64,000 bases of DNA from Eledone cirrhosa (GCA_964016885.1 OZ024751.1:24366001-24430000), one strand, 5' to 3'; shown: positions 1 through 63,384, counted from the stretch's first letter. Numbers and translations are program-made. The notes: a model not told the origin generated them from the letters alone.

Positions 1-61
1 CTCTCAATATTTCCATCTCTCAAACTACAGACGTATATTCAGTAATAATAATGGTACTTAC

Positions 62-189
62 CGGTATTTTGGTTAACATCTCAGTAATTGGAGGACATAA
101 CATACCAGATAGTGTCCCAACGCCGTTTGACAACCCCATCAGTATACTAGCGTAACGGGGTGCAATATCAAGATGATTGACGTTAAAAC
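62..189 (-). CDS. VGLUT: VGLUT coding exon (128 nt): (G)[42 protein letters not shown]
   Basis: ttttctcctag acceptor and CCG|gtaagt donor; [19 protein letters not shown] motif. Confidence 0.96.
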
Positions 190-826
190 CTAGGAGAAAA
201 AATTAAAAAAAGAAAATCAAAACTTTTGTCAGTGGTTACGTTGTCCCGGGAATGGAGATATTTTGTCGTCCAATGTTATACAAGCATGACCCGTAACTCC
301 CGAAGAAGTCGTGAGGGCGCTGTATTGACATACGATGTTTCTATGGCTTTTTAACACCTGGCGGAACCCATCTTCTCTCCAGGTCTGAATATAGCAGATT
401 TAATGTAAAGAAAGATAGAGAGAGGGAGAAAATGGAAGTGAGAAAAAGATATAGAGAAATAATCGACCTCAGTACTTAACTGGTACTTTTTTCTCGTCCT
501 TGACTAAATAAAAGGGTAAAGTTGACCTCGGCAGCATTTGAAATCCGGAATTAGAGGTTCGAAACGAATAATGACTCTGCCAATTCGCCGCCTACCCAAT
601 GCTATATAGTAAGTTGTTGTGAGATTCCTGTAATGGAGATCTCTCGTCACCCAATGCTATATAGGTAAGTATATACGCATGTAAGTATGTATGTAAGTAT
701 GTATGCATGTATGTATGTATTAAAGAATGTATGTATGTATAAAAGTGCGTAGTTATCTTTGGATTTTAGTCTTCACATTTATTATTATTACTATATACAT
801 ATTTATATATATATATATACATATTA

Positions 827-8571: not shown

Positions 8572-8576
<5 letters not shown>

Positions 8577-8763
8577 AAGAAGTAGGACCCCGACGGCTGA
8601 GCTCAAGCCGTTTCGACGGCTAATTCAGTACAGAATTAGCCGTCGAAACGGCTTGAGCTCAGCCGTCGGGGTCTTACTTGTTCCTATTACCCACTCTACT
8701 ACCCTAAGTATTGAGTAATTTGGTGCGTTATGGTCCACCTGGTTCCTTACCACATTTCCTTCG

Positions 8764-8765
<2 letters not shown>
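8572..8765. mobile_element. Family A short fold-back element in (TA)n
   Basis: Palindrome gaccccgacggctgagctcaagccgtttcgacggctaattc / its reverse complement, plus the family A tail; TA flanks. Confidence 0.8.
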
Positions 8766-26481: not shown

Positions 26482-26647
26482 AACGAAGGAAGTGTGGTAA
26501 GGAACCAGATGGACCATAACGCACCAGAGTACTCAATACTTAGGGTAGTATAATGGGTAATAGGAAAATATTCAAGACCTCGAAGGTCCAGAAATAGCCG
26601 TCGAAACGGCCTGAGTTCTGCCGTCGAGGTCTTAAACATTTTCCTAT
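26482..26647. mobile_element. Family A element in (TA)n, internally deleted
   Basis: Same tail (aacgaaggaagtgtggtaaggaaccag) and half-HHR gccgtcgaaacggc...gccgtcgaggtc. Confidence 0.75.
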
Positions 26648-26685
26648 ATATATATATATATATATGCATATATATATATATGTAT

Positions 26686-27981: not shown

Positions 27982-28322
27982 TAAATATGGTTTTCTAAAT
28001 ATAGTTTCCATTTATTAATATCGTATATATATATATATATATATATAACAAAGGAATTGTGGTAAGGAACCAAATGGACCATAACGCACCAGAGTACTCA
28101 ATACTTAGGGTAGTAGAGGATATATATATATAATATAGAGAGTGGTAATTAGCAATGTAACCTACCAAGCATGCATAACGAGAAATGTATGTATGTATGA
28201 ACCTGTGCTAACTATAGATATCTGTTCTACATGTTTATATATACTCTTATATACCCATCACTCATTGAATACTTTCTGGATTTTAGGCTTTGTATTTATT
28301 ATTGCTTTATATATATATAAAA

Positions 28323-29047: not shown

Positions 29048-29271
29048 AAGACTGAGAAATAAAATAGATTAAGGGGACGGGCGGGATGGAATTGCAAAAA
29101 AAGTCTATAGATAAAAATAATAGGTCCATTCATGTTGACATATATACATACATACATATATATACATATATATATATGATATACATGTATATATGCTTGT
29201 GTGTGTGTGTTTGTGCCTCATGTGCATGCTTGTGTATGCGTGATATTTTCTATTTTAAATATCATACTTAC

Positions 29272-29358
29272 CAAAACAATAAAATCCGGAGCGCCAACCT
29301 AAATATTGCGTTAGAAGGCCTGACAAAGGCATGCCCAGTACTGCTCCAGCGTACGAAC
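29272..29358 (-). CDS. VGLUT: VGLUT coding exon (87 nt): (G)[28 protein letters not shown](G)
   Basis: gtttcag acceptor and TTG|gtaagt donor; SYAGAV..MPL.G motif. Confidence 0.95.
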
Positions 29359-29462
29359 CTGAAACAACAGAACACAAGAAACTGGTTTACCACTATTTAA
29401 AGTAAGTCAAGGAAAAGGAAGGTTAAAAGTTGACAGATTTGATAGCGTGGTGGATTAATAAT

Positions 29463-29690
29463 GGTTTCTGAGTTAAGCACAAGGCCAACAATTTTATGTG
29501 GAGGAAGAGGAGGGGTGGAGGGTGTCTCGGATAAATCTACATCAGTGCATTACTGGTACTTTATTTTATCGACGCTGTAAGAATGAAAGGCAAACTAACC
29601 CCGACGCGATTTGAACGCAAAATGTAAAGGGCCAAACTATACAGAGCAAAGCGTGTTGTCCGGCGCTCTACCGATACTATCAATGCATCG
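29463..29690 (-). mobile_element. Meta-domain SINE copy (diverged)
   Basis: Homologous to 13161-13380. Confidence 0.7.
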
Positions 29691-29756
29691 ACCTCTGACG
29701 GAATAATAATTGTTTCTACTTTTGGCACAAGGCCATCATTTATAAATCAACGGTTA

Positions 29757-29872
29757 CGAGTTCAAATCCCGCCGAGGTTGACTTTGCCTTTCATCCTTAC
29801 GGAGGGTCGATAAAATAAAGTACCAGTAATGCACTGGGTAATTGCTGGCCTTGTACCTAAAGTAGAAACAGT
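29757..29872 (+). mobile_element. Meta-domain SINE, 5'-truncated, opposite orientation to 29463-29690
   Basis: gagttcaaatcccgccgagg...gtcgataaaataaagtaccag...ggccttgtacctaaagtagaaac. Confidence 0.8.
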
Positions 29873-29906
29873 TATTGTCATTGTTTTTTGTAGAAATATA
29901 TCTTAC

Positions 29907-29994
29907 CACAAAATGATATTGTCGCTAGCTGTGAACGTTCTAAGGGGGGTGCCCAGTACCTCCAGATGCCATGACAGGCTGGATATGTGACACC
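29907..29994 (-). CDS. VGLUT: VGLUT coding exon (88 nt): [29 protein letters not shown](G)
   Basis: cattttag acceptor and GTG|gtaaga donor; WAPPLERS motif. Confidence 0.96.
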
Positions 29995-37277: not shown

Positions 37278-37369
37278 AACGAAGGAGTTGTGGTAAGGAA
37301 CCAGATGGACGATAACGCACCAAAAATAGCCGTCGAAACGGCTTGAGCTCTGCCGTCGGGATCATACAT

Positions 37370-37373
<4 letters not shown>
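37278..37373. mobile_element. Family A element in (TA)n, strongly deleted
   Basis: Tail joined directly to the inverted half-HHR. Confidence 0.7.
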
Positions 37374-37408
<35 letters not shown>

Positions 37409-41921: not shown

Positions 41922-42327
41922 GTTCTTTGAGTCTCAGTCATTGATGTTATTCAACTGGAAAATTTATTGAAATGAATATCAAGCCACTACCTGCAGCCTC
42001 AGATATTCAGGACCTATCGAAGGGTTCTTGCAATTCCCAGCAAGCATGCCTTTTGAAGTGTTCCAATTTTCTTTAACCATCCTTGGAAACTCTTTGAGAT
42101 AGTACCTAGTGCGCCTATGACAATCGGGACCACTTTGACTTCATGGCAGTTCCAAATCCTTTTTACCACCCACTTTAAGTCCTGGTATCGGTTAATTTTC
42201 TCCCTCTCCTTCTCTTGCACTCTCGTGTCAAATGGGCAGGCCACATCTACAATCAGGCACGATCTTTTTTCCTTGTCCAAAACCACCAGGTGAGGTCTAT
42301 TGTGTTCCAGTTTCTTGTCCGTCTGTA
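41922..42327 (-). mobile_element. Second copy of the same R4/Dong element in (TAA)n
   Basis: QTDKKLEHNRPHLVVLDKEKRSCLIVDVACPFD; 3' UTR matches 6350-6425; TTA repeats on both flanks. Confidence 0.85.
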
Positions 42328-42405
42328 TTATTATTATAATTATTATTATTATTATTATTATTATTACTCTCTAAAATGCTCGGTTAGCATATAAATGATT
42401 ATCAT

Positions 42406-47368: not shown

Positions 47369-47560
47369 ATAGGAAAAGAATCAGGACCCCGACGGCTGGG
47401 CTCCAGCCGTTTCGACAGCTAGATCTACCTGTCGAAACGGCCGGAGCTCAGCCGTCGGGGTCCTGACTCTATTAATATTACCCACTCTACTACCCAAAGT
47501 ATCGAGTACTCTCTGGTGCGTTATGGTCCCACTGGTATCCTACCACACTTTCTTTGTTGT
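47369..47560. mobile_element. Family A-like fold-back element in (TA)n (diverged)
   Basis: Palindrome caggaccccgacggctgggctccagccgtttcgacag / ctgtcgaaacggccggagctcagccgtcggggtcctg, plus tail. Confidence 0.75.
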
Positions 47561-48747: not shown

Positions 48748-49596
48748 GTTATATACAACAGTACTAAAACAATGGCGAGTTGTCCTTTCTTGAAAGGCTT
48801 CATAATAGAATGAAAAGGGATCATAAAATCCTTAAATATATCAAAGTAAAAATGAATTCTGTTTTAATTCTGGCTCATTATATTTTAGATTAAATTTTTA
48901 TTACAAAAACTAATTAGAAGAATTTCTCAAAAATAATTTTCAATTTAAAAAAAATTGTATTTTCCTTTGGGTTTTGACTAATACATTTACACTTTTTTTT
49001 AATTACTATTGGGAAATGTTCAAGAGTAATTCCATTGATTTGCGTTTTATATATTTGTTTCGTTATTTTTAGTTAAGTAATTAAATAGCAGTGAATTAGT
49101 TGAGTCATTGCAACGTCCGATAGAATGTTCTGCGGTTTCAGTTAAACTTTCCCGCCAAACTTCACTTTTCATTCTTTCAGGGTTGATAAATAAAGTACCG
49201 TTACTAAGGTGAATTCTTCTTCATCTTCATCTTCATCTTCTTCTCTCTCTCTCTCCCTCTCTCTCTCTCTCGCGCGCGCAAACATACACACACGCGCACA
49301 TTAACACGCACACACTGTGTGGAAGAAATAGTCTTTGGTCAGAACCTGTTGAGAGATGTGAGCCATCAAGCCGTACGTTATATGTGTATGCCTACGACTC
49401 TATTACCAGTTAAGTGATCGGTGGTCAGTGAATATTGAGGTGGTCATAAACTCTCTTAGCTTTTAAGCATTATCTCGTTCACTTATAACACGAACAACGA
49501 TATCTTAAATCTCTTGCATGGGATGTTTACGTACAAACACTAAACTTTGAATCAGACATACCAGGAATACTGTTGAGTAATATAAAGATTACATAC

Positions 49597-49715
49597 CTGG
49601 TAGCTGGTATTCTAGATGCAAGGTAACCACCGGGTATTTGTGTAATAATATATCCCCAGAAAAATGAGCTGTCCACGATTCCGATAGTTTCTGGTGTCCA
49701 GCTGAATTCGGGCAT
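49597..49715 (-). CDS. VGLUT: VGLUT internal coding exon (119 nt): [40 protein letters not shown]
   Basis: ttttttag acceptor and CAG|gtatgt donor; SFFWGY/TQIPGG motif; phase 2 matches the next exon. Confidence 0.95.
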
Positions 49716-53956: not shown

Positions 53957-54048
53957 CGAAGGAAATGTGGTAAGGAACCAGGTGGACCATAACGCACCAA
54001 AGTACTCAATACTTTAGGTAGTAGAGTGGGTAATAGGAACCAGTAAGT

Positions 54049-54141
54049 CCCCGACAGCTGAGCTCAAGCCGTTTCGACGGCTAATTCTGGACTAAATGAA
54101 CATTTATCCTGGTATTTAAATAGCCGATCTTCTCAAGGGGT
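54049..54141 (-). ncRNA. Type I hammerhead ribozyme, U3-A8 variant (family A, left arm; same strand as VGLUT)
   Basis: Reverse-complement copy of 54490-54583, with one stem I pair lost. Confidence 0.75.
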
Positions 54142-54489
54142 AATTCCATATATGGTCAAAGTGATTGTCAAAAATCAGTAGTAATTCTGTGGTTGCAAAT
54201 TAGTAGGGGAGATGGTGGCTGAACCTGCCAGTAGGAGAAAGAGGGGAGGGGGGTGGAGTAGACCCAATCAAGCGTTGGTAGTGCCAGCTACAGCTGGGCA
54301 TGAGGTCAATGGGCATGAGGCATGACCTCATGCCCAGCTGTAGCTGGCACTACCAACGCTTGATTGGGTCTACTCCACCCCCCTCCCCTCTTTCTCCTAC
54401 TGGCAGGTTTAGCCACCATCTCCCCTACTAATTTGCAACCACAGAATTACTACTGATTTTTGACAATCACTTTGACCATATATGGAATT

Positions 54490-54583
54490 ACCCCTTGAGA
54501 AGATCGGCTATTTAAATACCAGGATAAATGTTCATTTAGTCCAGAATTAGCCGTCGAAACGGCTTGAGCTCAGCTGTCGGGGT
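54490..54583 (+). ncRNA. Type I hammerhead ribozyme, U3-A8 variant (family A, right arm)
   Basis: Stem I ACCCC/GGGGT; core TTGAGAA; stem II GA(T)CGGCTA...TAGCCGTC; GAAA; stem III CGGCT-tgagctc-AGCTG; GTC triplet, predicted cut after 54578. Confidence 0.82.
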
Positions 54584-54593
54584 CTTACTGGTT

Positions 54594-54629
<36 letters not shown>

Positions 54630-54635
<6 letters not shown>

Positions 54636-54722
54636 ACATTATGAAGAGAGAAGAAACATTTAGATATAATTAGTAATAAACTGTTCCTAAATTCCTCGAC
54701 TACGTAGTTTCGTGGCATAAAC
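54630..54722 (-). repeat. Inverted fragment of the 591-bp unit at the left end of the array
   Basis: Reverse complement of gtttatgccacgaaactacgtagtcgagg...cataatgtattttt, with a 16-nt deletion. Confidence 0.9.
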
Positions 54723-54954
54723 AGTGTGGGGACAACTGGAAAGCTTCCATTACTCATACTTCTCGCCTTCTTCACTACCTCTTCTACGGCCTCGATATGA
54801 ATGCCCCCTCCGCCTCCGTGGTATTTTTTTCGTGGTTATAGGAGGCTTAGCTCTGTTTCTCGACCGTTATATCGCGTGACTATCTCCCCCTCCGCCTTTT
54901 GGGATTCTTTCTCACGTCGTGTAGACGCGTTCTTGAGACTAGTAAAATGAGGTA

Positions 54955-55042
54955 TCCTCTTGATAAGTCGGCAGACCTCGCAAGGACTCTATATCTTTGA
55001 TATATTGTTTTTGTTTATGCCACGAAACTACGTAGTCGAGGA
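54955..55042 (+). ncRNA. Type I hammerhead ribozyme, U3-A8 core variant (array unit 1)
   Basis: Stem I TCCTC/GAGGA; core TTGATAA; stem II GT(C)GGCA...TGCCAC; GAAA; stem III C-TACGTA-G with palindromic loop; GTC triplet, predicted cut after 55037. Confidence 0.85.
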
Positions 55043-55545
55043 ATTTAGGAACAGTTTAGGTATGATACATTTTATTACTAATTATATCTAAATGTTTCTT
55101 CTCTCTTCATAATGTATTTTTAACTCTGATACTGGTTCAGTCTGGTTCAAACTGAATTGGTCTGTCCCAGTCATTCATTGAGCAACATCGGTGAAGTTGG
55201 CACCCTTAACTCACAGTTGGGTGCGGATGCATTCATGTATATATGTGTGTGTCCGCATGTATCTGTGTGTTTCTAAATGTATTAATAACTCCCTCTGGTC
55301 GAGCAATCTTTGAAGTGTGGGGACAACTGGAAAGCTTCCATTACTCATACTTCTCGCCTTCTTCACTACCTCTTCTACGGCCTCGATATGAATGCCCCCT
55401 CCGCCTCCGTGGTATTTTTTTCGTGGTTATAGGAGGCTTAGCTCTGTTTCTCGACCGTTATATCGCGTGACTATCTCCCCCTCCGCCTTTTGGGATTCTT
55501 TCTCACGTCGTGTAGACGCGTTCTTGAGACTAGTAAAATGAGGTA

Positions 55546-55633
55546 TCCTCTTGATAAGTCGGCAGACCTCGCAAGGACTCTATATCTTTGATATATTGTT
55601 TTTGTTTATGCCACGAAACTACGTAGTCGAGGA
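55546..55633 (+). ncRNA. Hammerhead ribozyme, array unit 2 (predicted cut after 55628)
   Basis: Copy of 54955-55042 at +591. Confidence 0.85.
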
Positions 55634-56136
55634 ATTTAGGAACAGTTTAGGTATGATACATTTTATTACTAATTATATCTAAATGTTTCTTCTCTCTTCA
55701 TAATGTATTTTTAACTCTGATACTGGTTCAGTCTGGTTCAAACTGAATTGGTCTGTCCCAGTCATTCATTGAGCAACATCGGTGAAGTTGGCACCCTTAA
55801 CTCACAGTTGGGTGCGGATGCATTCATGTATATATGTGTGTGTCCGCATGTATCTGTGTGTTTCTAAATGTATTAATAACTCCCTCTGGTCGAGCAATCT
55901 TTGAAGTGTGGGGACAACTGGAAAGCTTCCATTACTCATACTTCTCGCCTTCTTCACTACCTCTTCTACGGCCTCGATATGAATGCCCCCTCCGCCTCCG
56001 TGGTATTTTTTTCGTGGTTATAGGAGGCTTAGCTCTGTTTCTCGACCGTTATATCGCGTGACTATCTCCCCCTCCGCCTTTTGGGATTCTTTCTCACGTC
56101 GTGTAGACGCGTTCTTGAGACTAGTAAAATGAGGTA

Positions 56137-56224
56137 TCCTCTTGATAAGTCGGCAGACCTCGCAAGGACTCTATATCTTTGATATATTGTTTTTGTTTAT
56201 GCCACGAAACTACGTAGTCGAGGA
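56137..56224 (+). ncRNA. Hammerhead ribozyme, array unit 3 (predicted cut after 56219)
   Basis: Copy of 54955-55042 at +1182. Confidence 0.85.
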
Positions 56225-56727
56225 ATTTAGGAACAGTTTAGGTATGATACATTTTATTACTAATTATATCTAAATGTTTCTTCTCTCTTCATAATGTATT
56301 TTTAACTCTGATACTGGTTCAGTCTGGTTCAAACTGAATTGGTCTGTCCCAGTCATTCATTGAGCAACATCGGTGAAGTTGGCACCCTTAACTCACAGTT
56401 GGGTGCGGATGCATTCATGTATATATGTGTGTGTCCGCATGTATCTGTGTGTTTCTAAATGTATTAATAACTCCCTCTGGTCGAGCAATCTTTGAAGTGT
56501 GGGGACAACTGGAAAGCTTCCATTACTCATACTTCTCGCCTTCTTCACTACCTCTTCTACGGCCTCGATATGAATGCCCCCTCCGCCTCCGTGGTATTTT
56601 TTTCGTGGTTATAGGAGGCTTAGCTCTGTTTCTCGACCGTTATATCGCGTGACTATCTCCCCCTCCGCCTTTTGGGATTCTTTCTCACGTCGTGTAGACG
56701 CGTTCTTGAGACTAGTAAAATGAGGTA

Positions 56728-56815
56728 TCCTCTTGATAAGTCGGCAGACCTCGCAAGGACTCTATATCTTTGATATATTGTTTTTGTTTATGCCACGAAA
56801 CTACGTAGTCGAGGA
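56728..56815 (+). ncRNA. Hammerhead ribozyme, array unit 4 (predicted cut after 56810)
   Basis: Copy of 54955-55042 at +1773. Confidence 0.85.
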
Positions 56816-57318
56816 ATTTAGGAACAGTTTAGGTATGATACATTTTATTACTAATTATATCTAAATGTTTCTTCTCTCTTCATAATGTATTTTTAACTCT
56901 GATACTGGTTCAGTCTGGTTCAAACTGAATTGGTCTGTCCCAGTCATTCATTGAGCAACATCGGTGAAGTTGGCACCCTTAACTCACAGTTGGGTGCGGA
57001 TGCATTCATGTATATATGTGTGTGTCCGCATGTATCTGTGTGTTTCTAAATGTATTAATAACTCCCTCTGGTCGAGCAATCTTTGAAGTGTGGGGACAAC
57101 TGGAAAGCTTCCATTACTCATACTTCTCGCCTTCTTCACTACCTCTTCTACGGCCTCGATATGAATGCCCCCTCCGCCTCCGTGGTATTTTTTTCGTGGT
57201 TATAGGAGGCTTAGCTCTGTTTCTCGACCGTTATATCGCGTGACTATCTCCCCCTCCGCCTTTTGGGATTCTTTCTCACGTCGTGTAGACGCGTTCTTGA
57301 GACTAGTAAAATGAGGTA

Positions 57319-57406
57319 TCCTCTTGATAAGTCGGCAGACCTCGCAAGGACTCTATATCTTTGATATATTGTTTTTGTTTATGCCACGAAACTACGTAGT
57401 CGAGGA
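57319..57406 (+). ncRNA. Hammerhead ribozyme, array unit 5 (predicted cut after 57401)
   Basis: Copy of 54955-55042 at +2364. Confidence 0.85.
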
Positions 57407-57909
57407 ATTTAGGAACAGTTTAGGTATGATACATTTTATTACTAATTATATCTAAATGTTTCTTCTCTCTTCATAATGTATTTTTAACTCTGATACTGGT
57501 TCAGTCTGGTTCAAACTGAATTGGTCTGTCCCAGTCATTCATTGAGCAACATCGGTGAAGTTGGCACCCTTAACTCACAGTTGGGTGCGGATGCATTCAT
57601 GTATATATGTGTGTGTCCGCATGTATCTGTGTGTTTCTAAATGTATTAATAACTCCCTCTGGTCGAGCAATCTTTGAAGTGTGGGGACAACTGGAAAGCT
57701 TCCATTACTCATACTTCTCGCCTTCTTCACTACCTCTTCTACGGCCTCGATATGAATGCCCCCTCCGCCTCCGTGGTATTTTTTTCGTGGTTATAGGAGG
57801 CTTAGCTCTGTTTCTCGACCGTTATATCGCGTGACTATCTCCCCCTCCGCCTTTTGGGATTCTTTCTCACGTCGTGTAGACGCGTTCTTGAGACTAGTAA
57901 AATGAGGTA

Positions 57910-57997
57910 TCCTCTTGATAAGTCGGCAGACCTCGCAAGGACTCTATATCTTTGATATATTGTTTTTGTTTATGCCACGAAACTACGTAGTCGAGGA
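57910..57997 (+). ncRNA. Hammerhead ribozyme, array unit 6 (predicted cut after 57992)
   Basis: Copy of 54955-55042 at +2955. Confidence 0.85.
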
Positions 57998-58234
57998 ATT
58001 TAGGAACAGTTTAGGTATGATACATTTTATTACTAATTATATCTAAATGTTTCTTCTCTCTTCATAATGTATTTTTAACTCTGATACTGGTTCAGTCTGG
58101 TTCAAACTGAATTGGTCTGTCCCAGTCATTCATTGAGCAACATCGGTGAAGTTGGCACCCTTAACTCACAGTTGGGTGCGGATGCATTCATGTATATATG
58201 TGTGTGTCCGCATGTATCTGTGTGTTTCTAAATG

Positions 58235-58274
<40 letters not shown>

Positions 58275-62160: not shown

Positions 62161-62465
<305 letters not shown>

Positions 62466-63317: not shown

Positions 63318-63384
63318 TATTTTATTATACACATTTCAGAGGTACTGAGTTAACTTCAACAGTACGTCCTCATCAGATAAAATA
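63318..63384 (-). ncRNA. Hammerhead ribozyme with canonical core (family E-like)
   Basis: Minus strand reads TATTTTAT-CTGATGA-GGAcGTACTG...CAGTACcTCT-GAAA-TGTGTA-TA-ATAAAATA; 8-bp stem I. Confidence 0.7.

Follow-up and report, generated by a model that had tools for sequence, protein, structure and literature searches.

How does an element without an open reading frame come to lie inside an intron as a string of identical units, and why is one end of that string inverted? The question is raised by a tandem array in Eledone cirrhosa, found in a window of 64,000 nucleotides (GCA_964016885.1 OZ024751.1:24366001-24430000; the window is the whole stretch of DNA that was analyzed, and positions count from its first letter). 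The array proves to be real and very young, and it belongs to a class already known, the non-LTR retrozymes. We consider it probable that it is a young insertion for which a Penelope-type enzyme primed both DNA strands on a single 591-nt RNA, likely circular and likely A-to-I edited, and copied that RNA round.

The array sits within the gene for VGLUT, which spans the whole window. The exon at 49589..49715 (minus strand; matches VGLUT2, E 3.7e-15) is the next one downstream, in the sense of the gene, of the intron that holds the array, and an upstream exon is found some 6.4-6.8 kb past the end of the window. With VGLUT exons on both sides, the array falls in an intron, and its long arm runs antisense to the gene, as the first-pass annotation of this DNA had proposed in placing it in an upstream intron. 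A motif scan points to further VGLUT exons at about 29250-29960 and at 1-200 (minus strand). A fragment at 42014-42370 (minus strand) presumably resembles the C-terminal endonuclease region of a LINE-type element.

Structure of the array and its unit

Unit positions are numbered from the first base after the predicted ribozyme cut. The long arm (54723..58237, plus strand) is 3,515 bp of identical 591-bp units, 5.95 in number, with 0 mismatches at period 591; its 5′ end is unit position 277 and its 3′ end is the fixed far site described below (position 245). The short inverted arm (54630..54723, minus strand, 94 bp) consists of unit 566-591 plus 1-84, minus 16 nt internally, and holds only the 3′ half of the ribozyme; its end is of the near site class (position 80-84). 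From the sequence, a (TA)n target tract lies on each side, at 54598..54629 on the left and 58238..58261 on the right; a target-site duplication, of the kind that non-LTR retrozymes may have, would merge with these repeats. The first-pass annotation had seen this layout correctly: six type I hammerheads 591 nt apart in units that look identical, set in (TA)n with an inverted fragment at one end. The figure of 5.95 is the copy number of the assembly, as no listed contig from four public runs spans the locus; the head-to-tail join is seen in 4/4 of these runs. In run X1 (record 6), a single 621-nt contig of low depth and majority haplotype wraps the whole unit; the kind of this run is unrecorded, and the contig does not count as evidence of RNA. 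Single-unit substitutions number 0 in the array, against 2.7 expected at the sample mean, which fits a recent insertion.

One monomer, taken from cut site to cut site (55038..55628, plus strand), is strongly self-paired when folded as a predicted circle (z = -5.4 against 60 shuffles). The longest stop-free frame around the unit is 86 codons, and a blastx comparison with 122 Penelope-type proteins gave no match at E<=1. As first noted, then, there is no RT or endonuclease reading frame; since an autonomous Penelope-like element carries an RT plus a GIY-YIG endonuclease, the element is non-autonomous. Two copies of a GC-box-like 10-mer (55396..55487, plus strand, at 55396-55405 and 55478-55487; unit 359 and 441), also present in 33/54 sister loci, form a possible candidate internal promoter. 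By eye, each unit has an intron-like stretch just after the cut (55060-55140, plus strand), with a GT donor, TACTAAT, a pyrimidine run and AG. Introns are retained in Penelope pLTRs, to which this stretch can be likened. The monomer was thought to be unusually long; that view has to be given up, as 591 bp falls inside the 51-972 bp of families reported in the accessible text of 10.64898/2026.07.22.740005 (like other sources below, available in part).

A ribozyme in every unit

A complete type I hammerhead is found in 6/6 consecutive units, as is characteristic of non-LTR retrozymes. The first occupies 54955..55042 (plus strand), and the others follow every 591 nt: the 5′ halves start at 54955, 55546, 56137, 56728, 57319 and 57910, and cuts are predicted after 55037, 55628, 56219, 56810, 57401 and 57992. 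Three kinds of evidence identify it: a descriptor, its fold and conservation in sisters. First, the arrangement (UUGAUAA...GAAA...UC, with a 5-bp stem I, the UUGAUAA core, a long stem II and a 10-nt stem III) satisfies a type I descriptor matched by 0/2,000 dinucleotide shuffles of the unit. Second, the catalytic fold (-20.7 kcal/mol) lies 1.1 kcal/mol from the minimum free energy fold (-21.8). Third, in 54 older sister loci, identity to the unit is 98% over the ribozyme core and stems and 76% elsewhere, which indicates selection on the ribozyme. Scanning the whole window with Rfam gave 0 matches at the gathering score. Self-cleavage is a prediction, for which the conservation of the core speaks.

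Two details of the ribozyme matter for what follows. Stem III is a perfect 10-nt palindrome, with a duplex of -12.9 kcal/mol, and a U3-A8 pair replaces C3-G8 in the core. The core had been called non-canonical at first reading, which is accurate as to the pair; however, U3-A8 covariation is known from Penelope-like elements of Schistosoma (PMC4209133), in a report whose accessible text also covers dimers and proposes circles for Penelope-like elements. For retrozyme dimers in Xenopus, 8/9 are reported without cleavage and 1/9 with it (10.64898/2026.07.22.740005, accessible text), which counts against the cycle proposed below. Hammerheads of at least eight other families, some with C3-G8 and some with U3-A8 cores, occur in the flanks of the loci examined (L035, L036, L044, L050, L057, L085, L124) and in the window near 63370 (minus strand); within the window, none of them is found at Rfam thresholds.

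A dispersed family with two fixed ends

A 32-nt piece of the ribozyme has 2,908 exact matches in the genome (control 0), from which we estimate about 1,450 loci by extrapolation from the first 100 matches, which represent 50 loci. The family is thus dispersed and mobile genome-wide, as non-LTR retrozymes are, and the array, a very young insertion as first read, is one of this large number and no one-off. Ninety-five loci were analyzed, of which 50 were taken by position, 37 (the window among them) as best matches, and 8 in addition to these. Alignments below 84% identity, or below 70 nt and 90%, were left out before counting, as were 25 columns per 5′ junction and 8 per 3′ end; indels were excluded from substitution spectra. 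The longest arm per insertion has a median of 1.3 units, and arms reach 7.2 units. Older sister families, at 70-84% identity, also form tandems, and their ends fall at the same two sites.

The ends follow a strict rule. Of 142 arms, 138 end at one of two sites: 69 at the near start site (unit 80; 55108..55117, plus strand) and 69 at the far start site (unit 245; 55273..55282, plus strand), with four elsewhere, one of them cut by the locus edge. A TA run follows 136 of the 138, and in run X2 loose ends into (AT)n are seen at 55117 and at 55282. The 165 nt between the sites are the counterpart of the Penelope 'tail'. All 47 two-armed loci are head-to-head: 43 pair a near with a far end, none pairs the same site twice, and four have one other end. 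Their arms overlap by 0-8 nt at the junction in 37/47. Either arm may be the longer in the near-plus-far loci (23 vs 20), arm lengths are uncorrelated, and both arms exceed one unit in 16/43. In 93 long arms, the 5′ ends are spread almost evenly along the unit (KS p 0.09), and 4/93 lie within 5 nt of the cut (1.6 expected).

The array in the window obeys the same rule, with a far end at 58237 and a near-class end on its 94-bp inverted arm, and the family as a whole has the marks of mobilization by a Penelope element: two RT start sites that delimit a tail, and an inverted 5′-truncated copy. The expectation that start points among genomic copies would be circularly permuted did not survive: starts are fixed at the two sites, and only the 5′ ends scatter. 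Circularly permuted 3′ ends are ruled out by the fixed near and far ends. The inverted fragment would be the other arm of the insertion, primed independently of the long one, and the mechanism turns on it.

Behind each start site lies an element of the form RCTC...GAGYA, beginning 6 nt after the near site (55123..55184, plus strand) and 6 nt after the far site (55288..55305, plus strand). These are exactly the two matches in the unit, and both were found in 0/5,000 shuffles of it, for a motif drawn by eye from the same elements. RCTC...GAGYA also stands behind both sites in one sister and in the autonomous families B and C described below, and is a candidate protein-binding signal.

Variants fixed within insertions

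The sequence differences among loci bear on what was copied. With the majority letter of each column as reference, 171 locus-by-site variants are fixed in every unit of a locus and 5 are partial; no site is discordant between arms. On the ribozyme strand, the fixed sites comprise 26 A>G vs 7 T>C of 51 (p 5e-6). The excess persists at sites fixed in at least three units (19 vs 1 of 30), at sites fixed across both arms (20 vs 3 of 33) and at sites confined to one locus (13 vs 3 of 26, where private means private within 95 of about 1,450 loci). One locus (L176) has six A>G changes in a stretch of 92 nt, present in each of its 7-8 units across both arms. Relative to the positional majority, the haplotype in the window has three A>G changes and one C>T. 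Substitutions in single units have a different, CpG-like spectrum: 5 A>G vs 15 T>C of 100. In a control, the autonomous family B, 0 of 25 fixed sites are A>G (14 loci).

Mutation of DNA or RT error would be expected to appear first in single units and without this bias, which argues that the change was made on RNA before copying. Likewise, because A>G is fixed per insertion and absent from the single-unit spectrum, one monomer appears to have been copied repeatedly. A-to-I editing by ADAR, an established process with this A>G signature, is the likely source. Against this, the context preference of ADAR is weakly matched (a 5′ G precedes 2/25 edited adenosines, compared with 28/132 adenosines), and pairing at the edited adenosines is not significantly higher (p 0.16). 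Nor do the sisters consistently have A at the 26 A>G sites: A stands at 16 of them, G at 4 and another letter at 6. The suggestion made at the outset, that a very young, non-autonomous element was repeatedly copied from monomer-length RNA by a Penelope-type RT, gains support from the fixed variants, the two-site ends, the A>G bias and the family B control.

The template of the arrays

A monomer could be copied repeatedly as a sealed circle or as a cleaved linear molecule. In the second case, on reaching the 5′ end of the molecule the RT would jump precisely to its 3′ end, the RNA being in effect a non-covalent pseudo-circle. This accounts for monomer-to-multimer copying and for fixed edits equally well, and the 5′ ends near the cut fit it. 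At 281 cut-site junctions, however, there are 0 indels and 3 substitutions, and the absence of any indel favors a sealed circle. R2-type RT jumps usually add or lose bases, which counts further against a jump at the cut. Related retrozymes also accumulate as circles (PMC7229834, accessible text), and a jumping RT on a linear monomer seems unlikely to us.

A second possibility keeps the priming on two strands and takes as template an uncut, linear read-through transcript of a multi-unit array. Its best support is biochemical: in the one in vitro Penelope system, uncut RNA was the main template and ribozyme cleavage was not needed (PMC11167929, accessible text), a result that also weighs against the circular monomer that we prefer. 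A homogeneous source array would yield homogeneous daughters, and a longer homogeneous source array may exist for the haplotype seen here. Some variants also speak for it. Five transversions (in L037, L052, L059 with two sites, and L064) each occur once per arm, in a single unit, and their registers are inconsistent; three of the five fit a linear template primed in different units, and a clean circle does not predict them. L059's two shared variants, however, stand in opposite order in its two arms. Arm-to-arm conversion is perhaps the source of all five. A lesion in the circle is disfavored as their cause, since none recurs within one arm. An uncut transcript does not explain new A>G changes that are fixed in all units of both arms and not enriched among single-unit variants. 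With such a template arrays could only shorten over generations, yet arms of up to seven units coexist with a median near one. We regard an uncut template as distinctly improbable.

The array might instead have grown in place, from one unit, by unequal crossing-over or conversion as a satellite does, or have been expanded in assembly. The units are 100% identical, the 5.95 copies at this locus are known from the assembly, the five cross-arm variants suggest some conversion, and a satellite model has been put forward for retrozyme arrays (10.64898/2026.07.22.740005, accessible text). Against local growth, the arrays are dispersed, have non-integer lengths, fixed 3′ ends and scattered 5′ ends, and the head-to-tail join recurs in all four public runs. 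Had DNA been homogenized, the fixed changes should be strand-symmetric and rich in CpG, as the singletons are, rather than A>G on one strand. Such growth is very unlikely. Almost no credence can be given to fold-back self-priming, possibly on an antisense template, which was proposed for rotifer Penelope elements (PMC3846280, accessible text) and would produce junction microhomologies: it leaves near-plus-far pairing in 43/43 loci unexplained, A>G rather than T>C points to a sense RNA template if the marks are editing, and as a general route it is ruled out because in 8/43 loci neither arm fits inside the other and so neither can copy it.

The copying enzyme

Immediately beside the array, at 53957..54597, lies a head-to-head insertion of family B, a young autonomous element of Neptune type. 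The insertion comprises the 3′ end of that element, with far and near ends and a U3-A8 hammerhead at 54490-54583 (plus strand). Truncated and often palindromic 3′ ends of family B and relatives also occur at 8572-8764, 26483-26649, 28048-28118, 37279-37379, 47385-47557 and 62161-62353. Family B has 784 stop-free codons, a period of about 3.5 kb, RT and C-terminal endonuclease motifs, its own U3-A8 hammerhead, and intact near-identical copies genome-wide. It pairs near with far ends in 11/11 loci where both ends were read (15 examined, selected by the near end), plus twice in the window. The Zn-finger-like linker motif of family B is one that we take to be of Neptune type. A Pfam scan of the reading frame gave 0 families, so that the label 'Neptune-type' rests on domain order, this linker (PMC8557442, accessible text) and 279 full-length homologues.

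Neither family B nor a third family, C, has DNA homology to the unit. Family B and the unit have in common the U3-A8 core and a similar far element, and family C and the sisters a near element; the two-site layout with RCTC...GAGYA elements is common to B, C and the retrozyme. One of the 95 loci is a chimeric head-to-head insertion (L207/L298; L298 = G000:C1:94489000-94498500), in which 19 retrozyme bases connect a retrozyme near arm with a truncated arm of family C that ends at the far site of C. A hunt for a partner by pattern, excluding the two main sisters, brought up only further retrozyme subfamilies (25 loci read of 244 matches). In family C (L299 4440-6170) there are two hammerhead-like motifs, and a long 3′ region rich in (TATG) moves along with the element, so that some apparent microsatellite DNA here is transposon cargo. 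From these resemblances we infer that the copying enzyme is a borrowed Penelope-type RT.

The proposed cycle would begin with transcription of an array on the ribozyme strand. The hammerheads would release 591-nt monomers, probably by pairing into dimers at the palindromic stem III, and a host ligase may close these monomers, to judge from related retrozymes (PMC7229834, accessible text). ADAR would edit some adenosines of the self-paired RNA, as the A>G bias suggests. A Neptune-type RT/GIY-YIG dimer would then bind the two RCTC...GAGYA elements and nick both (TA)n strands, and position 80 would be primed from one strand and position 245 from the other, which would account for the pairing seen in the loci. 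Each RT would run on across the sealed cut site and complete anything from part of a round to seven rounds. Finally, the two cDNAs would be joined head-to-head by microhomology, of the kind seen at the junctions, or one arm would be lost, leaving a single 5′-truncated arm.

Comparison with known elements

The class is known, and comparisons here are with the accessible text of each source. Non-LTR retrozymes and their proposed circular cycle have been described in metazoans (PMC7229834), and an origin from Penelope pLTRs has been put forward for families with units of 51-972 bp (10.64898/2026.07.22.740005). The present family resembles those in both reports: it forms non-coding tandems with one type I hammerhead per unit, has a GC content below 50%, a self-paired predicted circle and a unit within the reported size range, and co-occurs with Penelope-like elements. 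It differs in that its ribozyme is of the Penelope type (U3-A8) rather than canonical. [quoted passage not shown] No description of two start sites, obligate near-plus-far arms, (TA)n targeting or A>G marks was found in the accessible text of these two reports. Plant LTR retrozymes, unlike this family of tandem units with a type I hammerhead, have a type III hammerhead in their LTRs.

With endonuclease-bearing Penelope-like elements of Neptune type (PMC8557442, PMC4209133, PMC3846280) the family has in common 5′ truncation, partial tandems, a head-to-head inverted copy, a one-ended 'tail', a palindromic stem III, U3-A8 and TA targets. Unlike them it has no ORF, its tail is 165 nt and not 30-40, and both of its arms can be multimers (16/43). 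The tail was described in PMC8557442 and PMC3846280 and traced to two internal start sites in PMC11167929. That last study, of the anole element Poseidon PAc in vitro, offers a close parallel: the tail is bounded by two internal RT start sites, both DNA strands are cut and extended, the target is AT-rich, the enzyme is a predicted dimer, and the required RNA reaches 3′ of the start sites. In Poseidon PAc, however, no strand difference between start sites is reported and cleavage is dispensable, whereas in the present family a start site is never used by both strands of one insertion. Non-autonomous Chlamys elements such as MRC1 (PMC8557442) are likewise multicopy, head-to-tail derivatives of Penelope elements; the Chlamys clade is reported without canonical hammerheads, and MRC1-like elements resemble the 3′ end of their partner, a kind of match that was not found here.

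Implications

Rolling-circle reverse transcription of ribozyme-made circles was proposed earlier (PMC4209133, PMC7229834), and direct support was not found in the accessible text of those papers. In the literature searched (listings and the openings of abstracts, apart from the papers cited here, with few subscription papers among them), no genomic evidence for the mechanism of the class was found. The search likewise showed no report of near-plus-far pairing as an obligate feature of copies in a genome, or of editing marks that are fixed throughout retrozyme arrays. A large, young, ORF-free family with per-molecule marks makes rolling-circle copying and two-strand priming testable from genome sequence. 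For biochemistry, a 591-nt substrate with mapped start sites is now at hand, and the strict near-plus-far rule limits how Penelope enzymes engage two DNA strands.

We lean, if by a little, toward a broader reading: ADAR edits would serve as barcodes of the one circular RNA that templated both arms and all units, and editing would be written into the germline and drive the evolution of the element. In the same reading, Penelope integration would be asymmetric and two-site, with paired RCTC...GAGYA elements assigning one start site to each strand, which would explain tails and head-to-head inversions generally. If the marks are indeed A-to-I edits, the family provides a route by which edits made on RNA become heritable.
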